DNA of 46,360 nucleotides. It comes from Candidatus Kuenenia stuttgartensis. GTDB lineage: Bacteria; Planctomycetota; Planctomycetia; Pirellulales; UBA1268. Positions 3,821 through 37,981 of this stretch are shown piece after piece. Numbering within the stretch: the first letter of the stretch is position 1; each line of letters starts with the position of its first letter. Location of the stretch: positions 1-46,360 of the forward strand of contig CAMARC010000001.1 in assembly GCA_945860405.1 (NCBI GenBank), given 5' to 3'. Made by a program: the position numbers and the translations under genes. Under the pieces are notes generated by a model that was given only the letters and a program-made list of their open reading frames with translations, was not told the origin of the DNA and searched no databases.

Positions 3821-3843
3821 TTTCGCCGCGGTAGTTCCCCCGA

Positions 3844-7501: not shown

Positions 7502-7535
7502 CAAGGATGCTCCGCTTCGTTCGGGGGGGCGACGG

Positions 7536-12530: not shown

Positions 12531-12604
12531 GCCAGCGTAGCTTCAATTGGCAGAGCACCGCATTCGTAATGCGGGGGTTGCGGGTTCGACTCCCGCCGCT
12601 GGCT
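12531..12604 (+). tRNA. tRNA-Thr (anticodon CGU)
   Basis: A hand-folded 74-nt cloverleaf. The 7-bp acceptor stem is GCCAGCG/CGCTGGC and the D arm is GCTT..GAGC. The anticodon stem CCGCA/TGCGG carries the loop TTCGTAA. The variable loop is 5 nt, and the T arm GCGGG/CCCGC has a TTCGACT loop. CCA is not encoded, and the gene is followed by TTTTTT. Confidence 0.93.
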
Positions 12605-21354: not shown

Positions 21355-21390
21355 ACAGACGCCGCCGGGATGAATCCCGACGGCGTCTGT
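21355..21390. terminator. GC-rich hairpin between convergent genes (candidate bidirectional terminator)
   Basis: ACAGACGCCG-C-CGGGA-TGAA-TCCCG-A-CGGCGTCTGT gives 15 bp with one 1x1 internal loop. It lies 13 nt after the stop at 21342 and 31 nt after the minus-strand stop at 21422. The flanking U-tracts are weak. Confidence 0.45.
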
Positions 21391-21421: not shown

Positions 21422-23458
21422 TCAGCGTGGAATCGTGTCGGATGGCTCGCGAGCGACGGTGTCGCTGCGACCCTCGCGGGGCAGGGCAACACCAGCGATA
21501 TACCATCCCTCGGGAACCGTCTCCATCCCCACGCCTGCGGCGCCCAGATAGCGTTGGATGACGTCGAACTCGGGCAACGTGCTGCCGTCGATCCGCTGTT
21601 CGCGGATGCTCCCTTCCTTGCCGTCGCCGAGCACGACGTTGAGCAGCTGCCCCATCAGGCTCTTCGACTTCGGCATCTCGCCACGACGGAGCATCTCGTA
21701 GGCCGGGCGAATCGTCTCATCGCCACGCCCGAAGCTCCGCAGCGCCGTCTCCCCGGGGAACAGCCGCGACAGCTCCTCCGTCACGACACCGTAGTCGCCG
21801 GCGTCGGAGAGCGTGCCGTCGGCCTCGGAGGTGGCAAGGACGCGTTCGAGGAAGTCGCGGTGGGAGGCGACGAGGAGATGGCCGTGGGCGATCGTCACGG
21901 CCGAGTGCGGAAGGAGCTTCTCCTCCCGATCGCGGAGCCGTCCCCGACGCCCCTTGGCGTCCGAATCGGCCTCGGAATCGGCATGGGCCGACACGAACCC
22001 GGGGGTCTCGATCTCCAGCTTCGGGATCGCATCCGTGCGGTCGATGAGCTCCCAAATGACGTGGCCGTCGAACTCCACCTTCCGCATGTCCGGGTCGGTC
22101 GACATCGACTTGGCCACCGTCTTTGCCACCTGCTCCGGATTGTGCGTCTCGATGGCGATCACGAGGCGCTCGCTGTCGACGTCGATCGGCATGGTGTGGT
22201 CGCTGATGATCGAAACCCGGGTGCCGAGGCAGCCGACGAGGTCGTTCTCGACGTCGATCTGCGGGCCGTCCGGATCCTCTTTGAGCGACGCGATCACATC
22301 CTCAAACACGCCCTTTTCACCGATGACATCGTCGACGAGCGACTCGGCCGAGGCGAACGCAGTCTTCATGTCCCACTGCATCGTCACCCAGCTCGACACG
22401 TCGCGCGGAACCCACGTCGGGGGATCGAGCCGGGCGGTGTTGGGGAACTGGAGCATGCGGGCGGCGAGCTTGTAGCGGTCGGGGGCAAAGGCCTTCCGCC
22501 CCTCGAGCGGCGGGGCATGGATGAGGGTGTGGTGGCGGAGATCGTGGAGCCCGTCGTCGAGCACGATCACCCCGCCGACGGCCTTCACCGCGTCAAAGCC
22601 CTGGCGACCGAGGATCGCCACGTAGTCGGGGCCCTTGCGCTTCTCGCGGGGGGGATTGGCGGCCTGGACGGCGCGGGCGAAGCCGAGCGGATCGACATAC
22701 CAGCGGATCGGCGCCGCGGTCGCAGAAACCTTGTCGGCGCACCGGTCACAGACCGCCTTGTAGGACGCGACCGTGGCGAGCCCATCGGCCCGGCCCGAAA
22801 GCGACGACGCGGTCTGCATGACGACGGCGGGATCGTCGCCGACGACGAGGGCATCGGGACGAAGGACGATGGCGACGCGCGTGGGAAGTGCGGCCCCCGG
22901 TTCCTGCGGCACATCGTAGACCGTCATCGTGGTGCCGTCGCCCGACGTCGAGGTCGACTTCGTGGCCTTCCGTTCGGCGAGGCGCTCGCCGACCGTCTCG
23001 ACCAGTCGCGTCGCCTCGTCACCGTGGCCGGTGGTGTCGACGAGGATCACCGTGGCCAGTTTGCCGGCGGCCGGCTCGATGACCCCGAGGGCGACCTCTC
23101 CCCCCGGAACGCTGGAGAGATCCTCGAACGAGAGCCCGAGCTTCCCCAGACGCTGCCGACCGGCCTTGCGGGCCTGATCCCGGACGCTCTCCACGAAGGG
23201 ACGCATCTGCGGGTCCCTGAGCAGCTGACCATAGTCGGTGTTGTCGAAGCTTTCCTGGAGCCGACGGGGATCCGGGGTGCTGACCCAGACCCGCGTGGTC
23301 GCCGGGAAGACGGTCTCGCTCGGGGCAAACCCGGCGGCCTCCACCCGAAGAGCCGGGCTGACGGAGGCGACGGCCACCATCCAGACAGCGGCGCGACCTA
23401 GGACTCCAGGGAGGTTCGTTCCCCTCCGTCGACGACCGGCCAACAAGCTACCGTGCAC
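21422..23458 (-). CDS. secreted hypothetical protein (678 aa), possibly last gene of the NRPS transcription unit
   Basis: The GTG start at 23458 is preceded by a strong SD, AAGGAGGAG (complement of 23464-23472, 5-nt spacer). The N-terminus has an Arg cluster followed by the hydrophobic AAVWMVAVASVSPALRVEA. No catalytic motif was recognised. Confidence 0.6.
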   Translation of the reverse strand: MHGSLLAGRRRRGTNLPGVLGRAAVWMVAVASVSPALRVEAAGFAPSETVFPATTRVWVSTPDPRRLQESFDNTDYGQLLRDPQMRPFVESVRDQARKAGRQRLGKLGLSFEDLSSVPGGEVALGVIEPAAGKLATVILVDTTGHGDEATRLVETVGERLAERKATKSTSTSGDGTTMTVYDVPQEPGAALPTRVAIVLRPDALVVGDDPAVVMQTASSLSGRADGLATVASYKAVCDRCADKVSATAAPIRWYVDPLGFARAVQAANPPREKRKGPDYVAILGRQGFDAVKAVGGVIVLDDGLHDLRHHTLIHAPPLEGRKAFAPDRYKLAARMLQFPNTARLDPPTWVPRDVSSWVTMQWDMKTAFASAESLVDDVIGEKGVFEDVIASLKEDPDGPQIDVENDLVGCLGTRVSIISDHTMPIDVDSERLVIAIETHNPEQVAKTVAKSMSTDPDMRKVEFDGHVIWELIDRTDAIPKLEIETPGFVSAHADSEADSDAKGRRGRLRDREEKLLPHSAVTIAHGHLLVASHRDFLERVLATSEADGTLSDAGDYGVVTEELSRLFPGETALRSFGRGDETIRPAYEMLRRGEMPKSKSLMGQLLNVVLGDGKEGSIREQRIDGSTLPEFDVIQRYLGAAGVGMETVPEGWYIAGVALPREGRSDTVAREPSDTIPR

Positions 23459-23618
23459 GAGAACTCCTCCTTGAAGGCACCGCGGGGGCGCGACGGTTGG
23501 TGCGCTCCCCCTCCTTATCGTTCCGGTGCGGCCCGAATCTGGACCCGATCACGGCGGACACACTCCCTTCGCCAACCGGCCGGGAAAGGTGCGCAAGCCC
23601 GGCAAGATCGTCCTCCGC

Positions 23619-24755
23619 TCAGGCCGGCGGGTAGGTCACCACGACCATCCACACCACGACCAGGACGGCGACCACCGCCGCCAGGGCGGTGCCTCCGTCA
23701 GTGCGTCGGCGGACGAGTGACGCCACGCCCCAGGTGATCGCCGCGCTGCCCGCCAGGAGAGCGACCGTTGCCATGGCCCCGGCCGATCGCTCGCGATCAC
23801 TGGCAAGGAGGGCCAGCGCCACCAGGGAGGGCCAGCCGAGGAGGAGGGCGTGAAAGCCGACAGATTCGCTGACCAGATCGGTCATGCCGATTCGCTTCCC
23901 CCCGCCCAGAGGCCGAAGCGGCACCGATTCCAGCAACCGACTCCACCCCCGCCCCAGCGAGACAGGCGTGATCGTCGCTTCGGGAACGGCCAGCGCCACG
24001 AAGCAGGCGACCACCACGATTCGATTGGCGGCAGCCGACTCGGGGGCGAGGAACAAGCAGACGACCATCCCCGTCAGGGCGGCCGCCATGCCCACGAGGT
24101 CGAGCCGCCCCCGTGCCGGTTCACCCGAGGCGATCAGGCGACCAGTCCCGCGCGGCTTCCGGGCAGCGAGGGGCATGCGGGCCACGACCACCGCAACGCC
24201 GATCGCCGCGAGCACGGCAACCAGCACAGCGGCTCGCCCCGCCAGGGAATTGTCTGCAAATCGATGCCACGCTGCGGCTCCTGCCAGTCCTGCTCCCGCG
24301 GTGATCACCAGCGCCCCGCTCGCCACATCCGCCCGGTTGGGTAGCTGGCGCTCGAGGAATGCGACGAGTGCGGCTGCAAAGCCGACTCCCAATAAAAACC
24401 CTGCAAGCGAGTGAAACCCTGCAAGCGAGTGAAACCCTGCAAGCGCCGCGCCCGATGGCCCGGCGGGGCTGGCCAAGGCTCCGACGCATCCTCCGATCAC
24501 CGGCCAGCCGAGCCTGGCAGCGATGGCTGCCATGGCTGCCGCAGGACCGCCGAGATGACCGGCCGGCGCGGGGATCGGGGCCCCAAGCGCGGCCACCGCC
24601 AAAACTCCCCCGAGGAGAAATCCGACCGCCGTCCGGGGACCGCCGACTGCCGGCCCACTCCCTGCGACCGAAACGCCACCGATCGCGGCAAGGAGAAGGA
24701 GATAGGAGGCCGGCCTACGGGCCTCGACCCTGAACAGGATCGCCGCCATGTTCAT
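23619..24755 (-). CDS. polytopic Ala/Gly-rich integral membrane protein, family unrecognised, translationally coupled to the NRPS
   Basis: 378 aa with roughly 9-11 hydrophobic helices. The ATG at 24755 overlaps the NRPS TGA (ATGA, 24752-24755). I could not see any MFS/ABC/RND/MATE signature. Confidence 0.6.
   Translation of the reverse strand: MNMAAILFRVEARRPASYLLLLAAIGGVSVAGSGPAVGGPRTAVGFLLGGVLAVAALGAPIPAPAGHLGGPAAAMAAIAARLGWPVIGGCVGALASPAGPSGAALAGFHSLAGFHSLAGFLLGVGFAAALVAFLERQLPNRADVASGALVITAGAGLAGAAAWHRFADNSLAGRAAVLVAVLAAIGVAVVVARMPLAARKPRGTGRLIASGEPARGRLDLVGMAAALTGMVVCLFLAPESAAANRIVVVACFVALAVPEATITPVSLGRGWSRLLESVPLRPLGGGKRIGMTDLVSESVGFHALLLGWPSLVALALLASDRERSAGAMATVALLAGSAAITWGVASLVRRRTDGGTALAAVVAVLVVVWMVVVTYPPA
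24396..24445. repeat. 18-bp in-frame tandem repeat (2.8 copies) inside the membrane-protein gene
   Basis: AAACCCTGCAAGCGAGTG occurs at 24396-24413 and 24414-24431, with a 14-nt partial third copy. On the minus strand it encodes AGFHSLAGFHSLAGF. Confidence 0.9.
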
Positions 24756-27700
24756 ACCGGTCTCCGTTCAGCGGGCTCGGCCGGGGAACCGGCCTGAGGG
24801 GTGCGATCCCCGCGGATGCCGCGGACGATGTTGGCGATGGTGGCCGCGTTGGCCCCGAAGATGACCTCGTGATGTTCCCCCGGGATCTGATGCACGGTCA
24901 ACCCACCAGCGCACCATCGCTTCCACACCCCGAGAACCGCCGGAAGCGAATCGGCAGCCTGAAAATAGTCGACCTGTCCGCCGTAGGGCAGGGCGCGGTG
25001 CCGCGCCACGAGCGCCCCATGGGAGTCGCCGCGGATCGGATCGACTGCTCTCCACTGCCGGGCGAGCTTGAATCGGGCGGGAAGCACGCGGAGATAACGC
25101 CACACCTGCGACGGCTGGGACGCAAGCCGGCGCAGGTGCTTCCAGACATACTGCCGCCCCAAGGCTCGATCGGCTGCCGCCATAACCTCATCCGGAAGGA
25201 GGCAGTTGATGTGGGTGTCGAACTGCGCGAGCAGCGCCACCTCATGTCCCCCGCGCCGCAAACGCTGGGCCGTCTCATAGGCGAACCATCCCCCCAGCGA
25301 GAAGCCGCCGAGGAAGTAGGGCCCCCGCGGCTGGAAGGCAACGATCTCGGCAGCGTACAGCTCAGCAAACGCCTCGAGCGAGGTCTGCATCTCACCTCCG
25401 TCGCGATCGATGGCCTGGAGGCCGTAGACGGGCACATCCGGCGCGAACGCTCGGGCGAGTTCGAGAGTCTCCGTGACGCCCCCACCGACGCCGTGGAAGA
25501 GAAACAGCGGCGGGCCCACCCCGAGCGGCTGGAGTGGAACGATCGAGCGGAAGCGGGGCGTCCACCCGTCGTCACGGAGAAGTGCCGCCATCGAAGCCAC
25601 GGTGGGGGCCTCGAACACCGCAGCGAGCGGCACCCGGCGGCCGAGCACCGCGGAGAGGTCGGCGACGAGCCGGGCCGCCATGATCGACTGCCCGCCGAGA
25701 TCGTGGAAAAAATGATCCTGGTCGCCGAAGTCGACCCGTCCGAACACGCGCTGCCAGGTGGAGCGAACCTGTGACAGGAACACCGGCAGGACGCCTAGCG
25801 AGCCGGTGGCCTGCGGGGGAGGGACGGGGAGGGCAACGGCTGACTCCGCGATCTGACTGGCGAGTGCGCGCCTGTCGATTTTGCCATTGGCGTTCACCGG
25901 CAGGGCGTCGAGGCAGACAAACCGGCAAGGGACCATCACCTCGGGCAGGCGTTCGGCCGTCCACCGCCTGAGTGTGTCGATATCCAGACCGCTCTCCCGC
26001 GGCACCACCCCGGCGACGAGCGACGACGTCCCGTCTGCCATGACAGGCGTGATCGCCATGACAGGCGTGATCGCCACCACCGCGACCGCCCCGATCTGCG
26101 GATGGCCGGCGAGACAAGCCTCGATCTCTGCCGGCTCGATCCGATGCCCGCGGATCTTCACCTGGGTGTCGTTACGTGCCACGAACTCGAGAAGCCCGTC
26201 GGGCCTCCACCGGCAAACGTCCCCCGTGCGGTACATCCGCTCCCCCGGCCCGGGAAGGAACGGATCGGGGAGGAACCGCGCGGCGGTCAGGTCGGGCCGA
26301 TGGTGGTAGCCGATGGCCAGTTGGGCTCCGCCGATGAAGAGTTCTCCCACCGTTCCCACAGGGACGGGGCGCAAACCGTCATCAAGGACATAGCACCGGA
26401 CGTTGTCGAGCGGGCGGCCGATCGGCGGCCTCTCCGCTCGCTCGCTCCGTCGGCACACCCAGGCGGTGGCCCACACCGTCGCCTCGGTGGGCCCGTAGAC
26501 GTTGACCAATTCAGCGTCTGACCGATCGAGGAACCTCTCCATCAGGCCGGAGGGCATCGCCTCTCCCCCGCAGAAGACGCGACGCAGCGTCGGGCACGCC
26601 GTGAACGATTCGTCGTCGACAAGGAGGGCGAGGAGCGAGGGCACGAACTGGGCCACCGTCACCGTCGCACTCCGCACCAGCTCCGCGATTCGGACCGGAT
26701 CGGTCCGCCCCGGCGGGAGAATCACGACCGCCGCGCCTGCCAGGAGCGGGCCGAAAACCTCATACACCGATATGTCGAACGTCGTCCGAGTGGCATGGAG
26801 ACAGACGTCGGCGGCATCGAGAGGAAAACGCCGCTGCTTCCCACGGAGATAGTTCACGACAGCCGCATGGGGGATCAGGACCCCCTTTGGCTGGCCGGTC
26901 GATCCCGAGGTGTACATCACGTACGCAGCCGCTCCGGGCTCGACGTCGGGGAGATCATCCTCCACTCGATCGCCGAGATCCGCAGCCTCGAGATCGATAA
27001 CAGCCATTCCTTCCGGCCAACCGCCGGCCGCGTGATGGGAGTCGATGATGGCGGAGAGCTGCGCATCGTCGACGATGAACGCCAGACGGGCAGGCGGGGC
27101 ATCCCGGTCGAGAGGTACCCAAGCGGCCCCGCTGCGGAGCACGGCGAGCATGGCGACAGTCGCGTCGATCGATCGGGGCAGCGCGATCCCCACCCGATCG
27201 CCACGCCCGATGCCCAAGCCACGGAGCCTCCTCGCCAGCCGCGCTGACCGCTGCTGAAGCGCCTCGTAGGTGACCTGCGCTTCCCCCTCACGCACCGCGC
27301 AGGCGGATGGCGTCCGCGCGGTCTGCTCCAGCACGAGGTGATGAAGCGTCGTCGCGGGCCCCAGATCGATGTCTGTCTCGTTGAACTCCTCGATCACCCG
27401 TCGTCGATCCGCGTCGGGCAGCATCGCCATCCGATGAATTGGCAGCGTCGGCCGGGCCGCTGCCTCGCCAAGAAACGCCGCGTACCGCGCTGCGAATTGG
27501 GCAACGACGTCTGCGTCGTACCGATCGGGCGGGAACTCGAGCGCTCCCTCCAGGCCGTCGGGCCCGATCTCGAGGGTGAGCGAAAGATCGAAGCGGGCCA
27601 GGCCGGCATCGATGGGCTCCGGCCGGAGGGTGGCAGCGCCGATCGTCCAGGCCCGATCCCCCGTCTCGACGACGGTAAGGAGGACGTTAACGAGGGGCTG

Positions 27701-30700
27701 ACGGCTGCCCTGGCGCGTCGGCATCGCCGCGGCCACGATCTGCTCGAAGGGGAGATCGGCATGGTCGAGCGCGCGGAGGAAGATTCCCTGAACACGCTCC
27801 GCGAGCCCCGGCAGCGTGAGGGGGTCTGCTGACGCCCCCTCGTCGAAGCGCACGCGCACCGGGAGGACATTGATGAGGCAGCCGACTGCAGCGGTCGTTT
27901 CCGCCGCGCCGCGCGTGGCCACCGGCGTACCGATGACGAGATCGCGCTCGCCGGTGATCCGCTGCAGCCAGGCGTGGACGGAGGCCAGGAGAAGATTGAA
28001 CACCATCACGCCGGAACGCTCGGCCAAGCTGCGGAGCCTGTCGAGGGCTTCCCGCTCGACCGTGAACCGGCATTTCCTGCCTCGCGACGACTCGACGACG
28101 GCAGCCACCGATCTCCCGGGGAGCGGCGTCTCGGCAGGAGCGGCGGCGAGCTCCTCACGCCAGAATCGACGATCGCGTTCGATGGCGGCCAAATCCCGGG
28201 CCGACGTCACGACCGGCAGGCTCCGGTCATCGAAGGCGTCGCCGGCGGCGTACGCGGCCGTCAAATCCGCACGGACGATCCCGATCGACCACTCGTCGAT
28301 GATCGCATGATGAAACGTCAGCATCAGCGTCGGCTCGGCCCCGGCGAGGTCGATCCGCACCGCCCGTACGAGCGGCGCGATGGCCAGATCGAACGGAGTG
28401 GAGGCCTCGTGCTCGAGCGCTGCCTGTAGGCCCGATTCCTCCGCGATCGTGACGACGCGCCACGGCACGGCGACAGCAGCGGTCGGCAGGACCCGCTGCA
28501 CGAGGTCACCATCCACCTCCACAAGCGTCGTCCGCAGCGCCGGATGGCGGGCCACAACGGCAGCCAACGACCGCTCCATCCGCGGCCAGTCGATCGGCCC
28601 GTCGACGCGCCACGCGATCGGGACGTTGTAGGTGGCTGGATCGGGGAGCAGCGAATGGAGGATCCACATGCCCCGCTGCGCCGGAAGCGGCCGACAGTCG
28701 ATGACCTCAGCGCCGGCTGGAATCGTTGTCAGGGCCACGGCTGATTCGGGGAGCGCCGCCGGCGGTCGGCTGATCCGGGCGGCAAGCTCGGCGAGCTTCG
28801 GCGTCTCGAACACGGTCTTGACCGGTAGACGGACGTGGAACCTCCGCTCGATCGCCGCCACCAGGCGCATCGACAACAGCGAATGGCCGCCACGCGCGAA
28901 AAATCCGTCGTCGCGCCCCACCGTCGGGATGCCGAGCAGCTCGCACCAGATCGCCGCCAGGGCCTCTTCGGTCTCCCCGACAGGAGCGGACCGGGGCGAA
29001 GCCTCCACCGCTTCGATCGCGGCATCGGGCGAGGGGAGCGCGGCCCGATCGAGCTTGCCGTTGGCGTTCACCGGCAGGGCGTCGACGCGCACGATCCGCC
29101 ACGGCACCATCGCCTCCGGAAGCCGCTCCGCCAGGATCAATTTCAACGCCTCGTCGTTCGGGGCAGAGGGCTCGGCGATGAGGTAGGCGACGAGCCGCCG
29201 GTCGCCGGGGCCGAACTCACGGTCGATGACCACCCCCCGCGTCACCCCCTCGATCCGCTCCAGTTCGGCCTCGATCTCCCCGAGCTCGATACGGACGCCG
29301 CGGATCTTCACTTGCGCGTCGAGCCGGCCGAGGTATTCGATCTCGCCGTCATGACGCCACCGAGCCAGATCGCCGGTGCGGTACATCCGCTCCCCGGGCC
29401 GCTCGAAGAACGGGTCTGAACGAAACCGCTCGGCGGTCAAATCGGGGCGGCCTAGGTAACCCCGCGCCACCCCGACGCCGGCGAGCCACAGCTCTCCTTC
29501 GATTCCCACGCCCATTGGCCGCAGCGCCGCGTCGAGGACATACGTCCGCATGTTCGCGATCGGCCGACCGATCGGCACGGGACCGGGGCGATCGCTGAGC
29601 CGGCATTCGTAGAAGGTTGCTTCGACGGCAGCCTCCGTCGGGCCGTAGAGGTTATGGATCCTGGCGGGCAGCCGCTCCAGGCACAGCCGCGCCGCCCCCT
29701 CCGGTAAAGCCTCCCCACTGCAGAAGACGTGCCGAAGCGTTCGGCACGATCGCTCGAGCCCGGGCACGTCGAGGAACACTTCGAGCATCGAGGGTACGAA
29801 GTGGATCACGGTGATGCCGGTCGCCTCGACCACCTTGGCAATCGCAGAAGGTTCGCGGTGAAGCCCCGGCGGCAACATGACAAGTCGGGCGCCAACAAGG
29901 AGCGGCCAGAAAAACTCCCACACCGAGACATCGAACCCGTAAGGGGTCTTCTGGAGCACGCGATCATCGGCTTCGAGGGCGTGCTTCTGCTGGATCCACC
30001 GCAGCCGGTTGACGATCCCCGCGTGCGTGTTCATCACCCCCTTCGGGGCCCCGGTCGAGCCCGACGTGTAGATCACGTAGGCCAGATCATCCGCCGTGGC
30101 GATGTCGTCGAGTGGTCCGTCGTCGAAGGCGGCGAGTTCCTGCCGCTGGGCATCGACCTGAAACACCTCGCCGACTGCACTCCCGATGGGACCAGCCACC
30201 CGGTCACGAAAACGCTCCTGAACGAGGACCACCGGCGGCGAAGCGCTCGTGAGCATCGTCGAGAGTCTTGCCGGCGGCACCTCCGGGTCGAGCGGCAGAT
30301 ACGCGCCGCCGGCGGCGACGATTCCTAGCAGCGCCACCACCATCTCAACCGACCGCTCCATGCACACGGCCACCGGCACGTCGCGGCCGACGCCCCGTGA
30401 CCTCAGGAACCGGGCCAACCGGTTCACCCGCCCGGCAAGCTCGGCATAGGAGAGGATTTCGTTGCCACTCTCGAGCGCCACCGCCGCCGGCGTGCGGCAA
30501 ACCTGCGCCGAAAAGAGCTCTTGGAGCGTGGCGGGGGGCCCGAGGTCGGTCGCCGTGGCGTTGAAGTCGTGAAGAACCCGCCGCTGCTCGTCGCCAGCGA
30601 GCAGATCGATGTCTCTGATCGCCACGCCCGGATTGGCGGCCACCGCCCCGAGGAGCGAGATGAATCCAGCGACAAACCGCTCGACGTCGGCGCTGACGAG

Positions 30701-33700
30701 AACATCGGTCGAGTACTCCACCGTCCCCTCGATCCCATCGCGGTCCGCCACGAGGGAGAGCGTGAGGTCGAAACGGCTCGTGCCGGTGTCGACGTCGACT
30801 TTCTCCATCCGCGTTGGCCCCACGGTCCACGTCGGTTCGGTCGGCTCGAGGAACACGAACATCACGTTGGTCACCGGATGGCGGCGACCGGCTTGGCGGC
30901 CGGGAACAGAGGTGACGATCTCGTCGAAGGGCAACTGACCGTGGTCGAGGGCCGTGAGGAACGTGTCTCGCACCCGTCGGATCGCAGCGCCGGCCGGGCC
31001 CTGCGCGAGCGCGGGGTCACCTCCCCAGCGGACACGGATGGGAAGCGTGTTGAGGAAACAGCCCACCACTTCTTCGAGGCCTTCCACGCCACGCCCCGCG
31101 ACCGGCGTGGCGATGACCGTGTCCTCGCTGCCGGTGGCCCGATGAACCCACGCGTGAAACGCCGCGAACAGGGCAGAAAAAAGGGTGGCATCAGCCTCCC
31201 GGGCGATCCCCCGCCAGGCGTCGGCGACGGAAACGTCGAGTCGGAAGCGGCGTGTTTTACCCCGAGACGTTGCCGCTTCAGCGTGACCAATCACCCCTGG
31301 CCAACGGACGCCGTCGGGGATCCCCGTCAGCTCGGCAGTCCAAAAGTTCCTATCCGCGACCGGATCGAGTGGCCCGGCGATCGCCGGCACCGCCATCGGA
31401 GCGAAGGCGGTCGATGCGTTGAGAGTCCCTGACGATTCCAGCGACACGTAGGCCCGGCCGAGATCGGCCAGACAGACATCGATCGACCAATCGTCGATGA
31501 TCGCGTGGTGGAAATTGAGGAGGAGAACGCCGTGCGGGGCCGCCGCGGGAAACAGCGTCGCCCGCCACAGCGGCGCCGTCGCCAGGTCAAAGGGAATCCG
31601 GGCGTGGGCCCGCAGCGCCGCCTCAATCCCCGTCTCGTCAACAAAGGGCTCTTCCGACCAGGGCAGCGGCACCCTTTCCACCGGCGCGATCCGCTGCACC
31701 GGGCCATCATCTCCGGCCTCGAGACTGGTTCGCAGCGCTGGATGGCGCGCTAGCACCCGTTGGAGCGCTGCGCGAAAGCGATCCCAGTCGATCGGCCCAT
31801 CGGGGCGGAACCCGAACGGCTGGTTGTAGGTGGCCCGATCGGGAAGCAGCGTCTGGAGAAACCACATCGCTCGCTGCGCGGGAAGAGCCGGCACGGTCGT
31901 AGCGTCTCCGGATACGCCTGCGGTCAGCGACCGCGGAGCGTCAGGCAAGGGGACGGGGGCCGCGCCGAACCAATGGGCTGCGATCGCCGCTACGGTCGGG
32001 TGATCAAAGACATTACGAACCGATGCGTTGATCCCGAATCGCTTCCGAGCCCGCGCCACCAGACGCATCGCTGAGAGCGATGTGCCCCCGGCGTCGAAGA
32101 AGTCGTCGTGACGACGCGGCACGCCTCGGCCGAGCACGGCAAGCCAGAGCTCCGCGATCGCCTGCTCGGCACCATCCAACGGCCTCTCGTCGGTGACGTC
32201 AGCCCCGACCTCCGCTCGCTCCGGAAGCGGGCTTCGTTCGAGGGAATGTCGGTCGAGCTTGCCGTTGGGGGTGAGTGGCAAGCCTTCATGGACGCCGATC
32301 CGGAGGGGAATCATCGCCGCCGGGAGCCGGGCCGCCAGCCAGGCGACAAGTTCGGAGGGGACGATCGCTGTGCCAGGCACAGGCACGACGTGCGCGACGA
32401 GGAACAATGTGCCAGTATCGTCACGCCTGACAACAACGGCCGCCTCGGCGACGAGCGGATGCCCGGCGAGTACCGCCTCGATCTCGTCTGGCTCGACCCG
32501 ATGGCCGCGAATCTTCACCTGCCGATCGGCTCGGCCAAGGTATTCGAGACGGCCGTCTTCGCGCCACCGTCCGATGTCACCGCTGCGGTACATCCGGCGA
32601 CCGGGTTCGGCGGCAAACGGATCGTCGATGAAGCGTTCGGCCGTCAGATCGGCCCTCCCCACGTAACCGCGGGCCAGGCAATCACCGCCGATCCAGATCT
32701 CCCCGGCGACGCCCACTGGCACCGGCTCCATCGCCCCGTCGAGCACCCGGATGGAGGCGCCAGCAACGGGACGGCCGATCACCGGCAGATTGGGCCAATC
32801 GCTCGGGTCGCCGTCGATGATCTGCGAGGTGACGACATGACTCTCCGTCGGGCCGTACTGGTTCCAGAGGATGCAGGCGGGGAGACGCGAGAAGAACCCG
32901 CGGATGGCAGGGCCGATGCGGAGTTGCTCCCCGGCGACGATGACTTCGCGCAGTGACGATGGGAACCGTCCCGTCGCCAGCGCTCCCTCCGCGAGGTGCT
33001 CGAGGACCGCCACCGGCAGGAAGATCCGCTCCACCGCGGAATCGATCAGAAGTTCGAGGAGCAGTGCCGGATCGAGCCTCGCCTCTTCCGGCACGATCAC
33101 GAGTTCACCACCGGACAGCCACGTGGAAAACAGCTCCTGGAAGGAGACGTCGAAGCCGGCACTGGCAAACTGAAGCGTCCGTGCCCCGCGCCCGACGACG
33201 GACTCGCGACACTGCCAGGCAACCAGATTGGCGATGGGACCGACCGGCATCTCCACGCCCTTCGGGACGCCGGTCGACCCCGAGGTGAAAAGGATGTAGG
33301 CGAGGTGGTCGTTGCCCTGGTCGTGCGGCACCTCCCCCGCCGGCTCGGCGGTGACTTCATCTGCCAGAACACCGGAGTCGATCCGCACGGTGCGAGGTCT
33401 GGCCCCCTCGGGCGGAATCGAGTTGCAGAGCGTCTCGACGAGCGCGGCGGTCCGGCTGCCGGACACGATGAACGAACAGCCGGCAATTGCCACCATCGAT
33501 GCGAGTCGTTCCGTGGGCAGCGTCGGATCGAGCGGCACGCAGCAGGCCTTCGTCATGAGCACGCCAAGGATCGCGGCCTGGAGTTCGGGCGAGCGCGGCA
33601 GGCAGATCCCGACAGGCATGCCTTTGGCCGCGCCCGCGTGGCGAAGCCGCGTCGCAATCTGCTCGCCATGCGCGTGCAATTCACGGTAGGTCCAACGCTC

Positions 33701-36700
33701 CGCCCACCATGTCACGGCGATGGCATCGGGGGTCGCCTCCACCTGATCACGGAACGGCTCGAGCAGGCCACCAGACGGGGTTGAGGACTCATCACTGCCG
33801 GCAAGGACCTGGAGCATCTGCTGTCGGCCGGCTGCATCGAGGAGCGACGCCCGCGCGACAGGTGCCGTGGGTGCCGAGAGAACCGAGCGGAGGAAGATGG
33901 AAAACGACGCCGCAAAACCGGCGATCGTCTCGGGATCGAACCGCCTTCGGTCGTACTCGAACGCCCCCTGCAGGACCCTCCCGTCCCCCTCCAGGAAGAG
34001 CGTCAGATCGAACTTCGCCGTCCCCGTTTCGACCAGGATCGGCGCGCAGGAAACGCCATCGAGCAGCGCCGATGCCAGCCCCTTGTCGGTGTGGACAAAG
34101 AGCGTCGTCACGATCGGCGACCTTTCGCCGGCCCGAGCATGGGCCGCTGCGGCCACGATCTCGTCGAACGGCAGATCCCGATGCGAGACGGTGGCAAGGA
34201 ACGTTTTCGTTACCTCCCCGATGAGGTTCGTGAACGTCCTCCGGGCAGCTTCGTCGTCGTCCCAGTGGACGCGGACGGGGAGGGTGTTGAGGAAGCAATT
34301 GACCGACTCTTGAACCTCGGGCGTGCTCCGCAACGACACCGGCGTACCGACAACGATGTCATCGGCACCGGATACGCGATGGAGCCAGCCGTGGAATGCC
34401 GCCAGCAGGATCTGAAAGAGCGTCGCGCCGGTCTCGCGGGAGATTCCATGGAGCGCCGCCGTGAGATCGCTATCGATCAAGAACCGATGAATTCCCCCGG
34501 TCGTCCTGTCCTCCCAGGGAGATGAAAGCCCCGGCCAAGGAAGTTCGCCGGTGGCGTCAGCCAACGTCTTCCGCCAAAACCGAGCGCAGCGATCCCGATC
34601 GGCCGGACCGAGGCCCGGGATACCGAGGTGAGATTCGGCTGCGGCTGGCCGTGCCCCCTCCGATTTCTCTTCCGCCGGTCTGGCAAACTCGCGGAGGAGG
34701 AGTTCGATCGACCAGTCATCGATGATCGCGTGGTGGAACGTGAGGAGCAGGATGCCGTGTGGGGCCGCCTGCGGAAACAGCGTCGCCCGCCACAGCGGCG
34801 CTGTCGCCAGCTCGAAGGGAATCCGGGCGTGGGCCCGCAGCGCCGCCTCAATCCCCGTCTCGTCAACTCCAGGCTCCACCGACCATGGAACCGACACCCG
34901 GTCGATGGACAACACCCTCTGCACCGGGCCACCGTCGTCAGCCTCGAACGCCGATCGCAAGGCCGGATGCCGCACCATCGTCCGGAAAAGCGTCTCCTGA
35001 AATCGCTCCCAGTCGATCGGTCCCTCGGGACGAAACGCAAACGGCTCGTTGTTGGTGGCCCGATCGGGAAGAAGGGCATCGAGGAGCCACATCCCTCGTT
35101 GCGCCGGCAGCGCCGGAAAGATCCGTTCTTCCGTGGGCGGAATCGTGGGGGCCGCTGTGAAGCCTCCGGCGGCCATGCTCCCAGTTCCGTCGGCCACCGC
35201 CGCATCAATCACCGCCGCCAAGCGCGAGACGGTTCTGGTCTCGAAGACCGTGGTAACCGGCAGCCGAACGCGAAACTCGCGCTCGATCGCCGCCATGAGG
35301 CGCATCGCCAGCAGCGAGTGGCCGCCGAGGGTGAAGAAGTCGTCGTCGCGACCGAGGGCCTGACGACGGAGGAGGGCGTGCCACAACGAGGCGACGCGCG
35401 ACTCGGTTCCAGGGCGCGGTCGTTCAACTCTGTCATCCGCAAGAAGGGCGAGAAGGGCCTTGCGATCGACCTTGCCGTTGGTGTTGACCGGCAGGGCGAC
35501 GATCGGCACCAGGCGTGCCGGCACGAACGCCGGCGGGAGGCGGCCCTCGAGCCATGCGTGGAGTCCGTCGATCGGCTGGAGACTGCCATCCCGGCGGGCG
35601 ACGAAAGCCGCCAACGCCGTCTCACCATCATGCCTGAAGGGGAGCACGGCAACGGCTTGCACGGCGGAGTGGCTGAGGAGCGTGTTCTCGATTTCCCCCG
35701 GCTCGACACGGTAGCCGCGGATCTTGACCTGCTGATCCATCCGCTCGACGAAGAGGATCGTGCCGTCGGGGAGGCGCCGGCAACGGTCACCGGATCGGTA
35801 CATCCCTTTCCCCTCACCGTCGGGGCGGGGGTCGGCCACAAACGTGCCCTCGCTGCCGGAGAGATAGCCCTTGGCAACCCCCGAACCACCGATCCAGAGC
35901 TCTCCAGGCTCGCCATCGGAGACGATCTGCCCGTCGGCCGACATGATGAGGCAGGAGGTGTGCGCGAGTGGCCGGCCGATCGGCACCGATCCATGGGGAA
36001 AGGTATCAGCCGGATCGATGACCTGCGTGCAAGCGAAGGTGGTGGTCTCGGTCGGTCCGTAGCCATTCGTAAGACGGATGCCGGGGAGCGCCTCGAACGC
36101 CCGGCGCACATGCGCGACCGAAAGTACATCTCCGCCTGTCAGCACGTGCCGGACCGGGGAGAGGGTCTCCGGGGCTAGATCGATGACACGGTTGAACAGC
36201 CCAGCGGTGAGCCAAAGACAGGTGATCCGCCCTGCCTGCACGACCTCACCGAACCGATGCAGTTCGAAGTACCGGTCGGGGTAGATCACCACCGTGCCGC
36301 CATGGAGCAATGGCCCCCACAGCTCGAACGTCGACGCGTCGAAGGCCGTCGGCGCCGCCATCAAGGTCCGCAGCTCAGGGCCAAAGTCGGCGTAGGTCTG
36401 CCCGATGACCAGCCCAACCACCGCGCGGTGGGGCACCACCACCCCCTTCGGAGTGCCCGTCGAGCCCGACGTGAACATCACATACGCCGGATCCTCCGGG
36501 TCGTAGGCTGGCTCCTCGCCATCCTCGATCCTGTCGAGCCCGGAATCCGTGAGGCACCGGCCGAGTGGGAGGCACGCGAGCCCAGGCCGCGCCCGGAGCA
36601 GGGGAGAGCAGGCCTCGTCCTCTTGCGCGGTCACGATCGCGGTCACCCCCGCAGCGTCAACCATCGATGCGAGGCGCTCGGCCGGATCATCGATTGGCAG

Positions 36701-36997
36701 CGGTGCATAGGCGGCGCCGCAGCGGAGCACGGCGAGGACCGCGACGACGAACTCGACCGATCGCCCGATCCCGATGCCAACGATCGCCCCGGGGCTGACG
36801 CCAGCCCTGCGCAGATCAGCCGCGAAACAGCGACTCGCGGCGGCGATCTCGGCGTAGGTCCACCGTTGCTCGCCGCACTCAATCGCGACCGCATCGGGGC
36901 GGGCGGCCGCCCGCTGATCGAACACCCGATGCACGCACGACCTCCACGCAACGCCGGGCGGTGTGGCAGATGAGTGATCAGCTGGCGGGTTTGACAT
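24752..36997 (-). CDS. non-ribosomal peptide synthetase, 4 modules: A-T-C-A-T-C-A-T-C-A-T-TE (4081 aa)
   Basis: Four adenylation domains, each with core motifs SGSTGxPKGV, NxYGPTE, YR(S/T)GD, QVKIRGxRIExxEIE and NGK(V/L/I)DR. Four carrier domains have phosphopantetheine Ser at aa 561, 1640, 2706 and 3771 (GGHSL, GGTSL, GGHSL, GGQSI). Three condensation domains carry HHAIID(D/E)WS at aa 755, 1830 and 2896. The terminal thioesterase has GFSLGG (Ser 3900) and GEHHE. There is no E, MT, Cy or reductase domain. Confidence 0.95.
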   Translation of the reverse strand: MSNPPADHSSATPPGVAWRSCVHRVFDQRAAARPDAVAIECGEQRWTYAEIAAASRCFAADLRRAGVSPGAIVGIGIGRSVEFVVAVLAVLRCGAAYAPLPIDDPAERLASMVDAAGVTAIVTAQEDEACSPLLRARPGLACLPLGRCLTDSGLDRIEDGEEPAYDPEDPAYVMFTSGSTGTPKGVVVPHRAVVGLVIGQTYADFGPELRTLMAAPTAFDASTFELWGPLLHGGTVVIYPDRYFELHRFGEVVQAGRITCLWLTAGLFNRVIDLAPETLSPVRHVLTGGDVLSVAHVRRAFEALPGIRLTNGYGPTETTTFACTQVIDPADTFPHGSVPIGRPLAHTSCLIMSADGQIVSDGEPGELWIGGSGVAKGYLSGSEGTFVADPRPDGEGKGMYRSGDRCRRLPDGTILFVERMDQQVKIRGYRVEPGEIENTLLSHSAVQAVAVLPFRHDGETALAAFVARRDGSLQPIDGLHAWLEGRLPPAFVPARLVPIVALPVNTNGKVDRKALLALLADDRVERPRPGTESRVASLWHALLRRQALGRDDDFFTLGGHSLLAMRLMAAIEREFRVRLPVTTVFETRTVSRLAAVIDAAVADGTGSMAAGGFTAAPTIPPTEERIFPALPAQRGMWLLDALLPDRATNNEPFAFRPEGPIDWERFQETLFRTMVRHPALRSAFEADDGGPVQRVLSIDRVSVPWSVEPGVDETGIEAALRAHARIPFELATAPLWRATLFPQAAPHGILLLTFHHAIIDDWSIELLLREFARPAEEKSEGARPAAAESHLGIPGLGPADRDRCARFWRKTLADATGELPWPGLSSPWEDRTTGGIHRFLIDSDLTAALHGISRETGATLFQILLAAFHGWLHRVSGADDIVVGTPVSLRSTPEVQESVNCFLNTLPVRVHWDDDEAARRTFTNLIGEVTKTFLATVSHRDLPFDEIVAAAAHARAGERSPIVTTLFVHTDKGLASALLDGVSCAPILVETGTAKFDLTLFLEGDGRVLQGAFEYDRRRFDPETIAGFAASFSIFLRSVLSAPTAPVARASLLDAAGRQQMLQVLAGSDESSTPSGGLLEPFRDQVEATPDAIAVTWWAERWTYRELHAHGEQIATRLRHAGAAKGMPVGICLPRSPELQAAILGVLMTKACCVPLDPTLPTERLASMVAIAGCSFIVSGSRTAALVETLCNSIPPEGARPRTVRIDSGVLADEVTAEPAGEVPHDQGNDHLAYILFTSGSTGVPKGVEMPVGPIANLVAWQCRESVVGRGARTLQFASAGFDVSFQELFSTWLSGGELVIVPEEARLDPALLLELLIDSAVERIFLPVAVLEHLAEGALATGRFPSSLREVIVAGEQLRIGPAIRGFFSRLPACILWNQYGPTESHVVTSQIIDGDPSDWPNLPVIGRPVAGASIRVLDGAMEPVPVGVAGEIWIGGDCLARGYVGRADLTAERFIDDPFAAEPGRRMYRSGDIGRWREDGRLEYLGRADRQVKIRGHRVEPDEIEAVLAGHPLVAEAAVVVRRDDTGTLFLVAHVVPVPGTAIVPSELVAWLAARLPAAMIPLRIGVHEGLPLTPNGKLDRHSLERSPLPERAEVGADVTDERPLDGAEQAIAELWLAVLGRGVPRRHDDFFDAGGTSLSAMRLVARARKRFGINASVRNVFDHPTVAAIAAHWFGAAPVPLPDAPRSLTAGVSGDATTVPALPAQRAMWFLQTLLPDRATYNQPFGFRPDGPIDWDRFRAALQRVLARHPALRTSLEAGDDGPVQRIAPVERVPLPWSEEPFVDETGIEAALRAHARIPFDLATAPLWRATLFPAAAPHGVLLLNFHHAIIDDWSIDVCLADLGRAYVSLESSGTLNASTAFAPMAVPAIAGPLDPVADRNFWTAELTGIPDGVRWPGVIGHAEAATSRGKTRRFRLDVSVADAWRGIAREADATLFSALFAAFHAWVHRATGSEDTVIATPVAGRGVEGLEEVVGCFLNTLPIRVRWGGDPALAQGPAGAAIRRVRDTFLTALDHGQLPFDEIVTSVPGRQAGRRHPVTNVMFVFLEPTEPTWTVGPTRMEKVDVDTGTSRFDLTLSLVADRDGIEGTVEYSTDVLVSADVERFVAGFISLLGAVAANPGVAIRDIDLLAGDEQRRVLHDFNATATDLGPPATLQELFSAQVCRTPAAVALESGNEILSYAELAGRVNRLARFLRSRGVGRDVPVAVCMERSVEMVVALLGIVAAGGAYLPLDPEVPPARLSTMLTSASPPVVLVQERFRDRVAGPIGSAVGEVFQVDAQRQELAAFDDGPLDDIATADDLAYVIYTSGSTGAPKGVMNTHAGIVNRLRWIQQKHALEADDRVLQKTPYGFDVSVWEFFWPLLVGARLVMLPPGLHREPSAIAKVVEATGITVIHFVPSMLEVFLDVPGLERSCRTLRHVFCSGEALPEGAARLCLERLPARIHNLYGPTEAAVEATFYECRLSDRPGPVPIGRPIANMRTYVLDAALRPMGVGIEGELWLAGVGVARGYLGRPDLTAERFRSDPFFERPGERMYRTGDLARWRHDGEIEYLGRLDAQVKIRGVRIELGEIEAELERIEGVTRGVVIDREFGPGDRRLVAYLIAEPSAPNDEALKLILAERLPEAMVPWRIVRVDALPVNANGKLDRAALPSPDAAIEAVEASPRSAPVGETEEALAAIWCELLGIPTVGRDDGFFARGGHSLLSMRLVAAIERRFHVRLPVKTVFETPKLAELAARISRPPAALPESAVALTTIPAGAEVIDCRPLPAQRGMWILHSLLPDPATYNVPIAWRVDGPIDWPRMERSLAAVVARHPALRTTLVEVDGDLVQRVLPTAAVAVPWRVVTIAEESGLQAALEHEASTPFDLAIAPLVRAVRIDLAGAEPTLMLTFHHAIIDEWSIGIVRADLTAAYAAGDAFDDRSLPVVTSARDLAAIERDRRFWREELAAAPAETPLPGRSVAAVVESSRGRKCRFTVEREALDRLRSLAERSGVMVFNLLLASVHAWLQRITGERDLVIGTPVATRGAAETTAAVGCLINVLPVRVRFDEGASADPLTLPGLAERVQGIFLRALDHADLPFEQIVAAAMPTRQGSRQPLVNVLLTVVETGDRAWTIGAATLRPEPIDAGLARFDLSLTLEIGPDGLEGALEFPPDRYDADVVAQFAARYAAFLGEAAARPTLPIHRMAMLPDADRRRVIEEFNETDIDLGPATTLHHLVLEQTARTPSACAVREGEAQVTYEALQQRSARLARRLRGLGIGRGDRVGIALPRSIDATVAMLAVLRSGAAWVPLDRDAPPARLAFIVDDAQLSAIIDSHHAAGGWPEGMAVIDLEAADLGDRVEDDLPDVEPGAAAYVMYTSGSTGQPKGVLIPHAAVVNYLRGKQRRFPLDAADVCLHATRTTFDISVYEVFGPLLAGAAVVILPPGRTDPVRIAELVRSATVTVAQFVPSLLALLVDDESFTACPTLRRVFCGGEAMPSGLMERFLDRSDAELVNVYGPTEATVWATAWVCRRSERAERPPIGRPLDNVRCYVLDDGLRPVPVGTVGELFIGGAQLAIGYHHRPDLTAARFLPDPFLPGPGERMYRTGDVCRWRPDGLLEFVARNDTQVKIRGHRIEPAEIEACLAGHPQIGAVAVVAITPVMAITPVMADGTSSLVAGVVPRESGLDIDTLRRWTAERLPEVMVPCRFVCLDALPVNANGKIDRRALASQIAESAVALPVPPPQATGSLGVLPVFLSQVRSTWQRVFGRVDFGDQDHFFHDLGGQSIMAARLVADLSAVLGRRVPLAAVFEAPTVASMAALLRDDGWTPRFRSIVPLQPLGVGPPLFLFHGVGGGVTETLELARAFAPDVPVYGLQAIDRDGGEMQTSLEAFAELYAAEIVAFQPRGPYFLGGFSLGGWFAYETAQRLRRGGHEVALLAQFDTHINCLLPDEVMAAADRALGRQYVWKHLRRLASQPSQVWRYLRVLPARFKLARQWRAVDPIRGDSHGALVARHRALPYGGQVDYFQAADSLPAVLGVWKRWCAGGLTVHQIPGEHHEVIFGANAATIANIVRGIRGDRTPQAGSPAEPAERRPV
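24818..25525 (-). other. NRPS terminal type I thioesterase domain, boundaries approximate
   Basis: LFLFHGVGGG, GGFSLGGWFAYE (Ser3900 codon at 25298-25300) and a C-terminal IPGEHHEVIF His motif. Confidence 0.8.
25583..28690 (-). other. NRPS module 4 (C3-A4-T4), boundaries approximate
   Basis: C3 spans about aa 2770-3200, A4 about 3215-3712 and T4 about 3735-3805 (Ser3771 codon at 25685-25687). The hand-extracted code is DIYQFGVVWK. Confidence 0.8.
26039..26074. repeat. perfect 18-bp tandem duplication inside NRPS A4
   Basis: CATGACAGGCGTGATCGC occurs at 26039-26056 and again at 26057-26074. On the minus strand it encodes AITPVM AITPVM (aa ~3642-3654), between the A8 (QVKIRGHRIEPAEIE) and A10 (NGKIDR) motifs. 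Confidence 0.95.
28763..31900 (-). other. NRPS module 3 (C2-A3-T3), boundaries approximate
   Basis: C2 spans about aa 1700-2135, A3 about 2155-2655 and T3 about 2675-2745 (Ser2706 codon at 28880-28882). The hand-extracted code is DVWHFSLVEK. Confidence 0.8.
31973..35125 (-). other. NRPS module 2 (C1-A2-T2), boundaries approximate
   Basis: C1 spans about aa 625-1060, A2 about 1075-1585 and T2 about 1605-1675 (Ser1640 codon at 32078-32080). The hand-extracted code is DVQFIAQVVK. Confidence 0.8.
35198..36997 (-). other. NRPS module 1 (A1-T1), boundaries approximate
   Basis: A1 spans about aa 20-515 and T1 about aa 530-600 (Ser561 codon at 35315-35317). There is no starter C domain. The hand-extracted specificity code is DAFWLGGTFK. 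Confidence 0.8.
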
Positions 36998-37126
36998 GAA
37001 GTGGCGGCGACAGGGCCGAAAAGACCGGTGTGAAGACGCGATATTATGACAGTCACCCAGCTCCTATTCCATGGATCGGGGAAGCCCTCGATCCACCAGA
37101 CCATCGATCCTTCGTCCTCATCCACG

Positions 37127-37981
37127 ATGCCCCCCATCCCGCTCCTCCTCGCCGACTGCGACGCCTGGGAGCCGACGGCCTTCGTGGCCAGTCTCTCCGC
37201 CGACGAGCGGGCACGCGCCGATCGCTTCCGGCAGACCGTCGATCGCGATCGCTTCATCGTCCGCCGCGGGCTCCTGCGCCGGCTCCTTGGGGAGCGACTC
37301 GGGGTCGAAGCCTCGCGCGTGCCGCTCGCCCCCGGCCCGGCCGGCAAGCCGACGCTTGCTGCCGCCGAGATCCGCCGCGCGGGAGGAGCCACCGCCGATG
37401 GCGCGCCGTGCTTCAATCTCGCGCGGAGCGGTGGCCTCGCGTTCTATGCATTCCTCTCCCCGGAGGACGCGCGGGCCGTCACCGGCCCCGCCGCCCCCGA
37501 TGGCCTAGCACTCGGCGTCGATCTCGAACGGATCGACACCGACAGGCGCTCGCTTGCCGACCTTCGACGAATCGCCGAGCACTTCGCGCCGGAGGAGACG
37601 AGTTTCTTGCAGTCGCTCCCCGATGCAAGAGCGGCAGAAGTCTTCTACCGGCTCTGGACCTGCAAGGAGGCCTGCCTCAAGTGCCTCGGCACGGGGATCG
37701 GTGGAGGTGGGCCGACACTCGCCGACATCGTCATCGCCCTCAATCCTGACGGCACGGCCAGCGGCGCCGCCAGGACCGCCTCGGGGCAGTCCTGGCGGGT
37801 CGCTTGTTTCGCGCCGTGCGCCGGCTATACCGCAGCGGTCGCGGTGCCGTTCGCGGAGGCGACGAGTGGAGGAAATCTCCCCCTCGAAGTCGCCGTGCAG
37901 CGTGTCGAGCCCGAGGCGGCGGAGCGAGCGGTCAGCCGCGTGGCCGCACCGCCCCCTGAACGCGCCCCGGGAGCCCCATGA
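37127..37981 (+). CDS. Sfp-type 4'-phosphopantetheinyl transferase
   Basis: Motifs ALGVDLERID and FYRLWTCKEACLKCLGTG (W/F-x-x-KE-A-x-x-K), plus the N-terminal ERARADRF..R..FIVRRGLLRRLL pattern. It is divergent from the NRPS. The start may be ATG 37127 (preferred, giving 284 aa) or ATG 37046 as in the track. Confidence 0.8.
   Translation: MPPIPLLLADCDAWEPTAFVASLSADERARADRFRQTVDRDRFIVRRGLLRRLLGERLGVEASRVPLAPGPAGKPTLAAAEIRRAGGATADGAPCFNLARSGGLAFYAFLSPEDARAVTGPAAPDGLALGVDLERIDTDRRSLADLRRIAEHFAPEETSFLQSLPDARAAEVFYRLWTCKEACLKCLGTGIGGGGPTLADIVIALNPDGTASGAARTASGQSWRVACFAPCAGYTAAVAVPFAEATSGGNLPLEVAVQRVEPEAAERAVSRVAAPPPERAPGAP

Follow-up and report, generated by a model that had tools for sequence, protein, structure and literature searches.

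A probable two-gene cassette for non-ribosomal peptide synthesis between argG and a core gene pair of uncultured freshwater Pirellulales

Linear (type A) non-ribosomal peptide synthetases (NRPSs) with a terminal type I thioesterase, such as surfactin SrfA-C, EntF and the synthetases of the gramicidin/tyrocidine type, have the order A-T-(C-A-T)n-TE of adenylation (A), thiolation (T), condensation (C) and thioesterase (TE) domains, with one module per residue. In other NRPS families, recombination replaces Acore units and leaves the Asub-T interface in place (Baunach et al. 2021, PMC8097286). NRPS clusters have been counted widely in surveys of planctomycete genomes, and the consulted part of a 2025 review contains no NRPS-derived peptide among the characterised planctomycetal compounds (PMC12673574 for both statements). 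Here we describe an NRPS locus in a stretch of 46,360 nucleotides (contig CAMARC010000001.1 of the assembly GCA_945860405.1, deposited as Candidatus Kuenenia stuttgartensis; below, the window), in which a gene for a 4'-phosphopantetheinyl transferase (PPTase) is followed on the opposite strand by an NRPS gene, a gene for a membrane protein of 378 aa and a gene for a protein of 678 aa (Table 1). The locus is a canonical linear NRPS with its cognate Sfp-type PPTase, an orphan in an uncultured lineage. The biosynthetic unit is probably a two-gene cassette, consisting of the Sfp-type PPTase and the four-module type I NRPS, with argG on one side and a pre-existing core gene pair on the other. This reading builds on what was observed directly, that is, the anatomy of the locus, its distribution among relatives, the selection acting on its genes and the scar of a deletion.

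The 678-aa protein belongs to a very well conserved family with more than 457 clusters of relatives, all of them planctomycetal where named. Its relatives were found in genomes of 164 GTDB species, and 80 loci were returned, all from metagenome-assembled genomes (MAGs) of Planctomycetia/Pirellulales from lakes or other freshwater. In 75 loci the 678-aa gene is immediately preceded by an ortholog of the membrane gene; among the 69 loci whose upstream sequence extends over 1.5 kb or more, 68 have it. With the window included, the locus states are as follows: 49 loci have the pair immediately behind argG, without NRPS and PPTase; 14 loci carry an NRPS; three have a deletion scar and the PPTase; three have only a PPTase-like gene; and 16 are undeterminable. 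For example, the order in L004 and in GCA_041443025 is pyk, argG, an open reading frame (ORF) of 391/403 aa and a homolog of the 678-aa protein (~60% identity), both NRPS and PPTase being absent; the membrane ortholog of L004 begins at 8751, after the end of argG at 8724. The 391/403-type ORF of L004 matched the membrane-family profile in hhalign with a probability of 96.9% (E 1.3e-10, 320 co-linear columns). The hidden Markov model behind the count of 75 loci was built only from NRPS-linked membrane proteins, and round 1 of its search was used, rounds 2-4 being left out because argG was picked up via stop-to-stop ORFs. A word-based search had yielded no more than 27 relatives for the membrane protein, so that the membrane gene at first seemed NRPS-specific; the genomic context in NRPS-less loci spoke against this. 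The membrane and 678-aa proteins are core envelope proteins of this lineage.

L041 is the sole assessable locus without a membrane ortholog: its argG ends at 9602 and the 678-aa homolog starts at ~9929, leaving a gap of 327 nt. The membrane gene itself is dispensable in at least this one lineage.

The loss of the NRPS is documented by a scar in L010, L013 and L014. These loci keep the PPTase (77-80% identical) and have only ~430 nt between PPTase and membrane gene, with an ORF of 79 codons in which ~66 N-terminal NRPS codons (…RRWTYAEIAAAS…) are joined in frame to the last ~10 (…DPRERGRA*), and which overlaps the start of the membrane gene by ATGA in all three. Comparison of the scar with the 5' end of the NRPS gene in the window and the 3' end of that in L011 revealed the junction microhomology GGGCGATC. 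The same junction was found in three separate assemblies, which stem from different studies, with substitutions between them; therefore the deletion is real and shared, and an assembly artefact is unlikely. The flanks of the NRPS-bearing L011 and the scar-bearing L013 are 96.0% identical at the nucleotide level over 6 kb. The scar ORF has stayed open in three diverged genomes, with ratios of non-synonymous to synonymous substitution rates (dN/dS) of 0.27-0.73 calculated from few codons, and may persist as a leader ORF for translational coupling. Between the deleted lineages the dN/dS ratios are 0.20-0.32 for the membrane gene and 0.11-0.14 for the 678-aa gene, both of full length. Since the two genes are intact and constrained after the loss of the NRPS, their function is independent of it.

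These observations bear on the original prediction, which had treated the four genes as one dedicated system with the two unnamed proteins serving in export or processing of the peptide or being its target. Such a system would fit the adjacency of the four genes in every NRPS-bearing locus, the conserved ATGA overlap of the NRPS and membrane genes and the lack of another exporter in the window. However, the pair has the same neighbours in the 49 loci without NRPS and PPTase, it has remained intact and constrained after the NRPS deletion, the membrane protein is 65% identical to that of the window in the NRPS-bearing L011 and in the NRPS-less L010 alike, and neither protein has a Pfam or NCBIfam match among transporters or peptidases. 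With the same distribution and selection in the presence and in the absence of the NRPS, the pair is very unlikely to be a dedicated part of such a system, and coupled export or processing partners are not supported. Synteny in relatives, which had been proposed as a check, holds in that the pair stands beside the NRPS wherever an NRPS exists, but is uninformative because the pair is equally present without it. The membrane gene is linked to the NRPS by position, not by function, and the two-gene cassette is an accessory element.

Table 1. Features of the NRPS locus. Positions refer to the window unless a locus is named.
Feature	Position	Strand	Basis
NRPS gene, 4081 aa, A1-T1-C1-A2-T2-C2-A3-T3-C3-A4-T4-TE	24752..36997	-	ORF listing, Pfam, motifs
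Module 1 (A1-T1, aa 1-605), initiation, without starter C	35183..36997	-	motif positions; boundaries approximate
Module 2 (C1-A2-T2, aa 625-1680), Pro-type	31958..35125	-	domain mapping, specificity code
Module 3 (C2-A3-T3, aa 1700-2745), Ser-type	28763..31900	-	domain mapping, specificity code
Module 4 (C3-A4-T4, aa 2770-3810), Gly-like, tentative	25568..28690	-	domain mapping, specificity code
Thioesterase (release) domain, aa 3830-4081, GFSLG	24755..25510	-	Pfam PF00975, motif
Sfp/HetI-like 4'-phosphopantetheinyl transferase	37046..37981	+	Pfam ACPS, NCBIfam HetI; likely start ATG 37127 (284 aa)
Divergent NRPS/PPTase spacer, bidirectional promoter presumed, AT-rich CATAATAT element	36998..37126	.	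sequence
378-aa polytopic membrane protein, fast-evolving core gene	23619..24755	-	ORF, hydrophobic helices, orthologs in NRPS-less loci
678-aa exported or N-terminally anchored protein (suggested), large Planctomycetia family, core gene	21422..23458	-	homolog searches, AlphaFold2 model
Perfect 15-bp hairpin, probably bidirectional terminator	21355..21390	.	folding; between convergent 678-aa gene and 878-aa esterase-like gene
79-codon scar ORFs	L010:8408-8647, L013:6983-7222, L014:2923-3162		coordinates in loci

The anatomy of the locus is as the original prediction had described it: an orphan tetramodular NRPS encoded by one ORF of 4081 aa in the order A-T-C-A-T-C-A-T-C-A-T-TE and not resembling a pseudogene, a divergent Sfp-type PPTase with an ambiguous start, a membrane ORF starting inside the NRPS stop codon, a gap of 160 nt before a 678-aa gene with its own strong Shine-Dalgarno sequence, a closing 15-bp hairpin, argG and pyk beyond the PPTase, no nameable family for either co-directional gene, no MbtH-like ORF and no recognisable tailoring, regulatory or exporter gene in the window. 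The evidence for these statements is given below.

The NRPS ORF is open across 12.2 kb in a genome with a GC content of 68%. The proposed check with Pfam profiles recovered all named NRPS domains as well as the ACPS domain of the PPTase: the NRPS contains four AMP-binding, four AMP-binding_C, four PP-binding, three Condensation and one Thioesterase stretch, the last (PF00975) at aa 3830-4054 with the GxSxG nucleophile motif GFSLG near aa 3901. A search for NRPS motifs found four copies each of A3, A5, A7 and A10, spaced regularly ~1060 aa apart, and the phosphopantetheine-attachment serines of the four T domains lie in GGHSL, GGTSL, GGHSL and GGQSI. The active-site motif of the C domains is HHAIIDDWS in two cases and HHAIIDEWS in one, so that the catalytic His-His-Asp is kept and the G of the HHxxxDG consensus is replaced by D or E in all three, a variant conserved among relatives. 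Domain and motif analysis of the NRPS found no epimerisation (E), methyltransferase (MT), cyclisation (Cy) or starter-C domain. Compared with L046 (1851 codons), the dN/dS ratio of the NRPS gene is 0.22, and that of single domains 0.10-0.26, demonstrating purifying selection. The NRPS stayed below the cut-off of every named NRPS equivalog in NCBIfam (bits versus cut-off: EntF 1629/2400, MxcG 1602/2300, AusA 1638/2500, SolG 1814/2200). Recent tandem duplication of modules was rejected, since even the best DNA stretches between modules are only 60-80% identical. A homolog search with T4-TE, run as a census of full-length NRPS sizes, returned 15 short fragments only and was uninformative.

Such an NRPS could also be a decaying or silent relic without a current product, considering that close relatives have deleted it as dispensable and that its C domains lack the consensus G. 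Yet the long open frame at this GC content, the presence of all catalytic residues, the dN/dS ratios well below one in the whole gene and in every domain, and the conservation of the motif variant in relatives make this explanation extremely improbable.

The longest ORF of the PPTase has 311 aa and matched ACPS (PF01648) with 58.5 bits (cut-off 25). Two-lobed PPTases of this type have ~230-290 aa and an N-terminal pseudo-repeat; here AASDHPPT_N matched the N-terminal half weakly, below its cut-off (22.7 bits, cut-off 27), and the length of 284-311 aa fits; the best NCBIfam match is HetI with 117.5 bits, under the equivalog cut-off of 370. The PPTases of relatives have 284 aa and their alignments to the window PPTase start at residue 25-28; therefore ATG 37127 is the likelier start and the spacer to the NRPS gene has 129 nt. 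A scan for consensus sigma-70 promoters, which is not designed for Planctomycetes and says little, found nothing in the divergent spacer or in the 160-nt gap. PPTase and argG are convergent and their 3' ends overlap by 50 nt (37932-37981), which fits a cassette wedged tightly against argG. After the loss of the NRPS the PPTase is intact, with dN/dS ~0.3 in L013 and L014 and a single uninterrupted high-scoring segment pair of 273 aa in L010. This retention in NRPS-deleted lineages suggests that the PPTase may serve other carrier proteins too.

On the downstream side, the NRPS stop and the start of the membrane gene overlap as ATGA, an arrangement of translational coupling. The gap between the membrane gene and the 678-aa gene (23459-23618) contains AAGGAGG 7 nt before the GTG start of the latter, and the hairpin has a folding energy of -44.5 kcal/mol (z -5.5 versus shuffled sequences). 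Searches of Pfam and NCBIfam assigned no family to either protein. The membrane protein has ~9-10 hydrophobic helices; its AlphaFold2 model, with a mean predicted local distance difference test (pLDDT) score of 38.7, was too poor for comparison with known folds. The N-terminus of the 678-aa protein is Arg-rich and continues into a hydrophobic helix, and conservation begins at residue 44, which suggests that the protein is exported or N-terminally anchored. Its AlphaFold2 model (pLDDT 63) had no match at E <= 0.001 in a fold search of the PDB; weak domain-sized resemblance to the periplasmic folds of TiME, DcrB, PsbP and Mog1-like proteins is a hint only. The dN/dS ratios of window versus L046 are 0.21 for the membrane gene and 0.07 for the 678-aa gene.

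The two neighbours evolve at unequal rates, the membrane protein being 31-33% identical to that of the window where the 678-aa protein is 76-83% identical (L005 and L015; 33% and 76%, respectively, in L005). The membrane protein contains a tandem repeat, GFHSLA-GFHSLA (aa 106-117, window ~24405-24440), whose copy number varies among close homologs: one copy is present in P0126, P0135 and P0137, and none in more distant homologs.

To predict the substrates, the Stachelhaus residues were numbered against GrsA-PheA (1AMU), with a reference fragment exactly matching 1AMU residues 234-524. The code of A1, DAFWLGGTFK, is an exact match to the Val code listed for MlcM (PMC9113097), and that of A2, DVQFIAQVVK, matches the Pro code DVQFVAQVVK at 9 of 10 positions (PMC9113097). 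The A3 code DVWHFSLVEK likewise matches the Ser code at 9 of 10 positions, relatives having exactly the published DVWHFSLVDK (PMC3795760). The A4 code DIYQFGVVWK matches at ~6-7 of 10 positions and shows the pattern DI.Q.G..WK common to the Gly codes DILQVGLIWK and DILQLGMIWK. The predicted product is thus unmodified Val-Pro-Ser-Gly, with all residues expected to be L because the NRPS has no epimerisation domain; its calculated monoisotopic [M+H]+ would be 359.193 in the linear and 341.182 in the cyclic form. According to this prediction from sequence, which covers both the substrate identities and the release of the product, the PPTase would prime the four carrier domains, the modules would activate Val, Pro, Ser and a Gly-like residue and couple them to each other, and the terminal thioesterase would free the tetrapeptide in linear or cyclised form. 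Ancestrally the membrane gene would have lain within ~26 nt of argG, and the cassette would have displaced it behind the NRPS; since this displacement the expression of the membrane gene probably depends on transcription and translation of the NRPS.

Several points weigh against this reading. Every C domain has D or E at the motif G, with a possible effect on activity; the A3 code of the window has E instead of D at position 9; and the Gly assignment of A4 is weak and tentative. The host is uncultured, peptide formation is deduced from the gene itself, and purifying selection alone argues for function. The ATGA coupling is kept in all NRPS-bearing loci, where the four genes are always adjacent, and in the scar as well, which fits a functional link and is equally expected from position. 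Domain boundaries and recombination breakpoints are resolved only to ~40-80 residues, the module counts of several relatives are minimum values as their NRPS genes reach the edge of the 10-kb flank, and the tree used below is that of a single protein, the 678-aa protein.

Relatives differ in the number of modules. As judged from the specificity codes, Val-Pro-Ser-Gly is predicted for the window and L046; Val-Pro-Ser for L001 and L007 (3006 aa), in which an A4-type module is missing; and Val-Ser-Gly for L011, L008 and L005, which lack Module 2 (Pro) and whose genes end at the locus edge, their three modules being deduced from the alignment register. Tile mapping of L011 against the window showed one module-length indel with ends at equivalent positions inside C1 and C2. 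The NRPS of L001 is a mosaic, whose register changes closely behind the A8 hinge and again within the C-terminal lobe of a C domain, with Asub-T units kept and Acore units exchanged. The interpretation of L005 as a dimodular NRPS of 1921 aa was rejected, since its reading frame 1 runs without a stop from the locus edge over 2834 aa or more. In L005:1-8505 the public annotation has a gene at 2740-8505 (1921 aa), preceded by three small ORFs on the reverse strand, and this call shortens the open NRPS frame.

Alleles with four modules, with three modules and with a deleted NRPS form a series among close relatives with flanks 85-96% identical. Module-length indels and Acore-type recombination would have given rise to the three-module versions, and some relatives have deleted the NRPS in frame. 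A bolder reading, which we consider rather unlikely, is that the cassette is a long-lived polymorphism of presence/absence and module number among abundant uncultured freshwater Planctomycetia, making a small family of peptides, Val-Ser-Gly, Val-Pro-Ser and Val-Pro-Ser-Gly, and that it has captured the expression of the two core envelope genes, the 79-codon remnant being kept as a leader ORF; if so, the capture would imply that the NRPS is constitutively transcribed.

When the 678-aa proteins are arranged in a neighbour-joining tree, the loci with an NRPS fall into two separate clades amid many lineages that lack one. The synthetases of clade II (L049 and L067) are far more divergent, being 32-51% identical and ending with …Pro-Val-TE.

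Three lineages sister to the clade II loci carry a PPTase-like gene, 37-39% identical to that of the window, between argG and the membrane gene and without an NRPS (L043:7546-8223, L048:5842-6519 and L054:7570-8166). This gene may be what is left after a second loss of an NRPS, independent of the first; no scar was recognisable in a comparison made without the N-terminus of the clade II NRPS.

For the history of the cassette we assign comparable weight to an ancient origin with losses and to gain or transfer via the flanks. The former falls just short of an even chance: the PPTase-NRPS cassette would have occupied the site in the ancestor of the family-level clade and would often have been lost, the two NRPS clades being survivors. 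Both clades share the arrangement of argG, PPTase on the opposite strand, NRPS and membrane gene; deletion is documented directly by the scar in L010, L013 and L014; the loci L043, L048 and L054 adjoin clade II and look like partial losses; the divergence of the NRPS scales with that of the flanks, ~65% identity of the A domains going with 76% in the 678-aa protein, and ~50% with 58%; and one C domain of clade II also carries the unusual HHxxxDDWS motif. However, at least five or six independent clean losses are required, each leaving argG ~26 nt from the membrane gene without a scar, the inter-clade identity of the TE domains is only 32-34%, and the order of the predicted residues is X-Pro-Val versus Val-(Pro)-Ser-(Gly).

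Gain or transfer is possible, at somewhat less than an even chance. Here the NRPS-less state would be ancestral, and the cassette would have been gained independently in two clades or moved by homologous recombination through the conserved flanks. This is supported by parsimony on the tree (two gains versus many losses), by argG as potential homology arms (proteins 84-88% identical in most of the clade and as much as 99% in the nearest loci), and by scar and intact alleles interleaved among lineages 93-96% identical, suggesting allele exchange. On the other hand, independent gains would have had to hit one site in one orientation twice, by coincidence, and next to the cassette the window has neither a mobile-element gene nor a tRNA or direct repeat.

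The other large ORFs of the window, as classified by Pfam, are housekeeping genes: CcsA-like, GSDH-CBM6, ComEC, release factor, KdsA-type DAHP_synth_1, RpoA_CTD-TPR, DUF4912, PSCyt1, esterase-like, argG, pyk, SDR and GlnD. The PSCyt1 domain agrees with an origin from Planctomycetota, as do the titles of the 80 related loci. A six-frame search of the window found no MbtH-like signature; an MbtH-like gene may lie elsewhere in the genome. The sole Rfam match at the gathering threshold is a tRNA gene at 12531-12604 (+; RF00005, 60 bits), located just upstream of the RpoA_CTD-TPR gene. The latter (12634-13977, +) combines TPR repeats with two C-terminal domains of the RNA polymerase alpha subunit (PF03118, 139 bits) and is found at the same position in all related loci. 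The record titles of L010, L011, L046, L054, L059, L072, L084 and other lake MAGs are 'Candidatus Kuenenia stuttgartiensis' or 'Planctomicrobium piriforme'; given the synteny and identity to MAGs of 'Pirellulales bacterium', these titles look like mislabelled taxonomy.

In summary, genes can be tightly linked, and even share an ATGA, without belonging to one biosynthetic cluster; the comparative context settles the matter, and no new kind of export or processing machinery is revealed by this locus. What it offers is a compact target of two genes (~13 kb). If the peptide is made, it would possibly be the first characterised NRPS peptide from Planctomycetota, as far as the consulted part of the 2025 review goes. 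The four-module, three-module and deleted alleles of close relatives form a test set for the rules by which NRPS modules are inserted and lost, and a secondary point of interest is the NRPS remnant, through which translational coupling to a core gene persists.

Compared with known systems, the locus resembles linear (type A) NRPSs with a terminal type I thioesterase in its domain order, its core motifs, its one module per residue and the Sfp-type PPTase encoded alongside; it differs in that it has no starter C, E, MT or Cy domain, its C domains carry HHxxxD(D/E)WS and its host is an uncultured freshwater planctomycete. The PPTase is similar to Sfp/HetI-type (group II) enzymes, with ACPS above the Pfam cut-off, a length of ~284 aa, a weak AASDHPPT_N half and HetI as the best match; in contrast to the HetI equivalog, it reaches 117.5 instead of 370 bits and is retained (dN/dS ~0.3) in NRPS-deleted lineages. 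The breakpoints after the A8 hinge and in the C-terminal lobe of the C domain are like those in the diversification of microcystin, anabaenopeptin and lipopeptide NRPSs (PMC8097286; Fewer et al. 2007, PMC2174460), whereas, unlike in those recombining families, the number of modules also shifts between four and three by indels inside C domains, and the synthetase has been excised completely and in frame.

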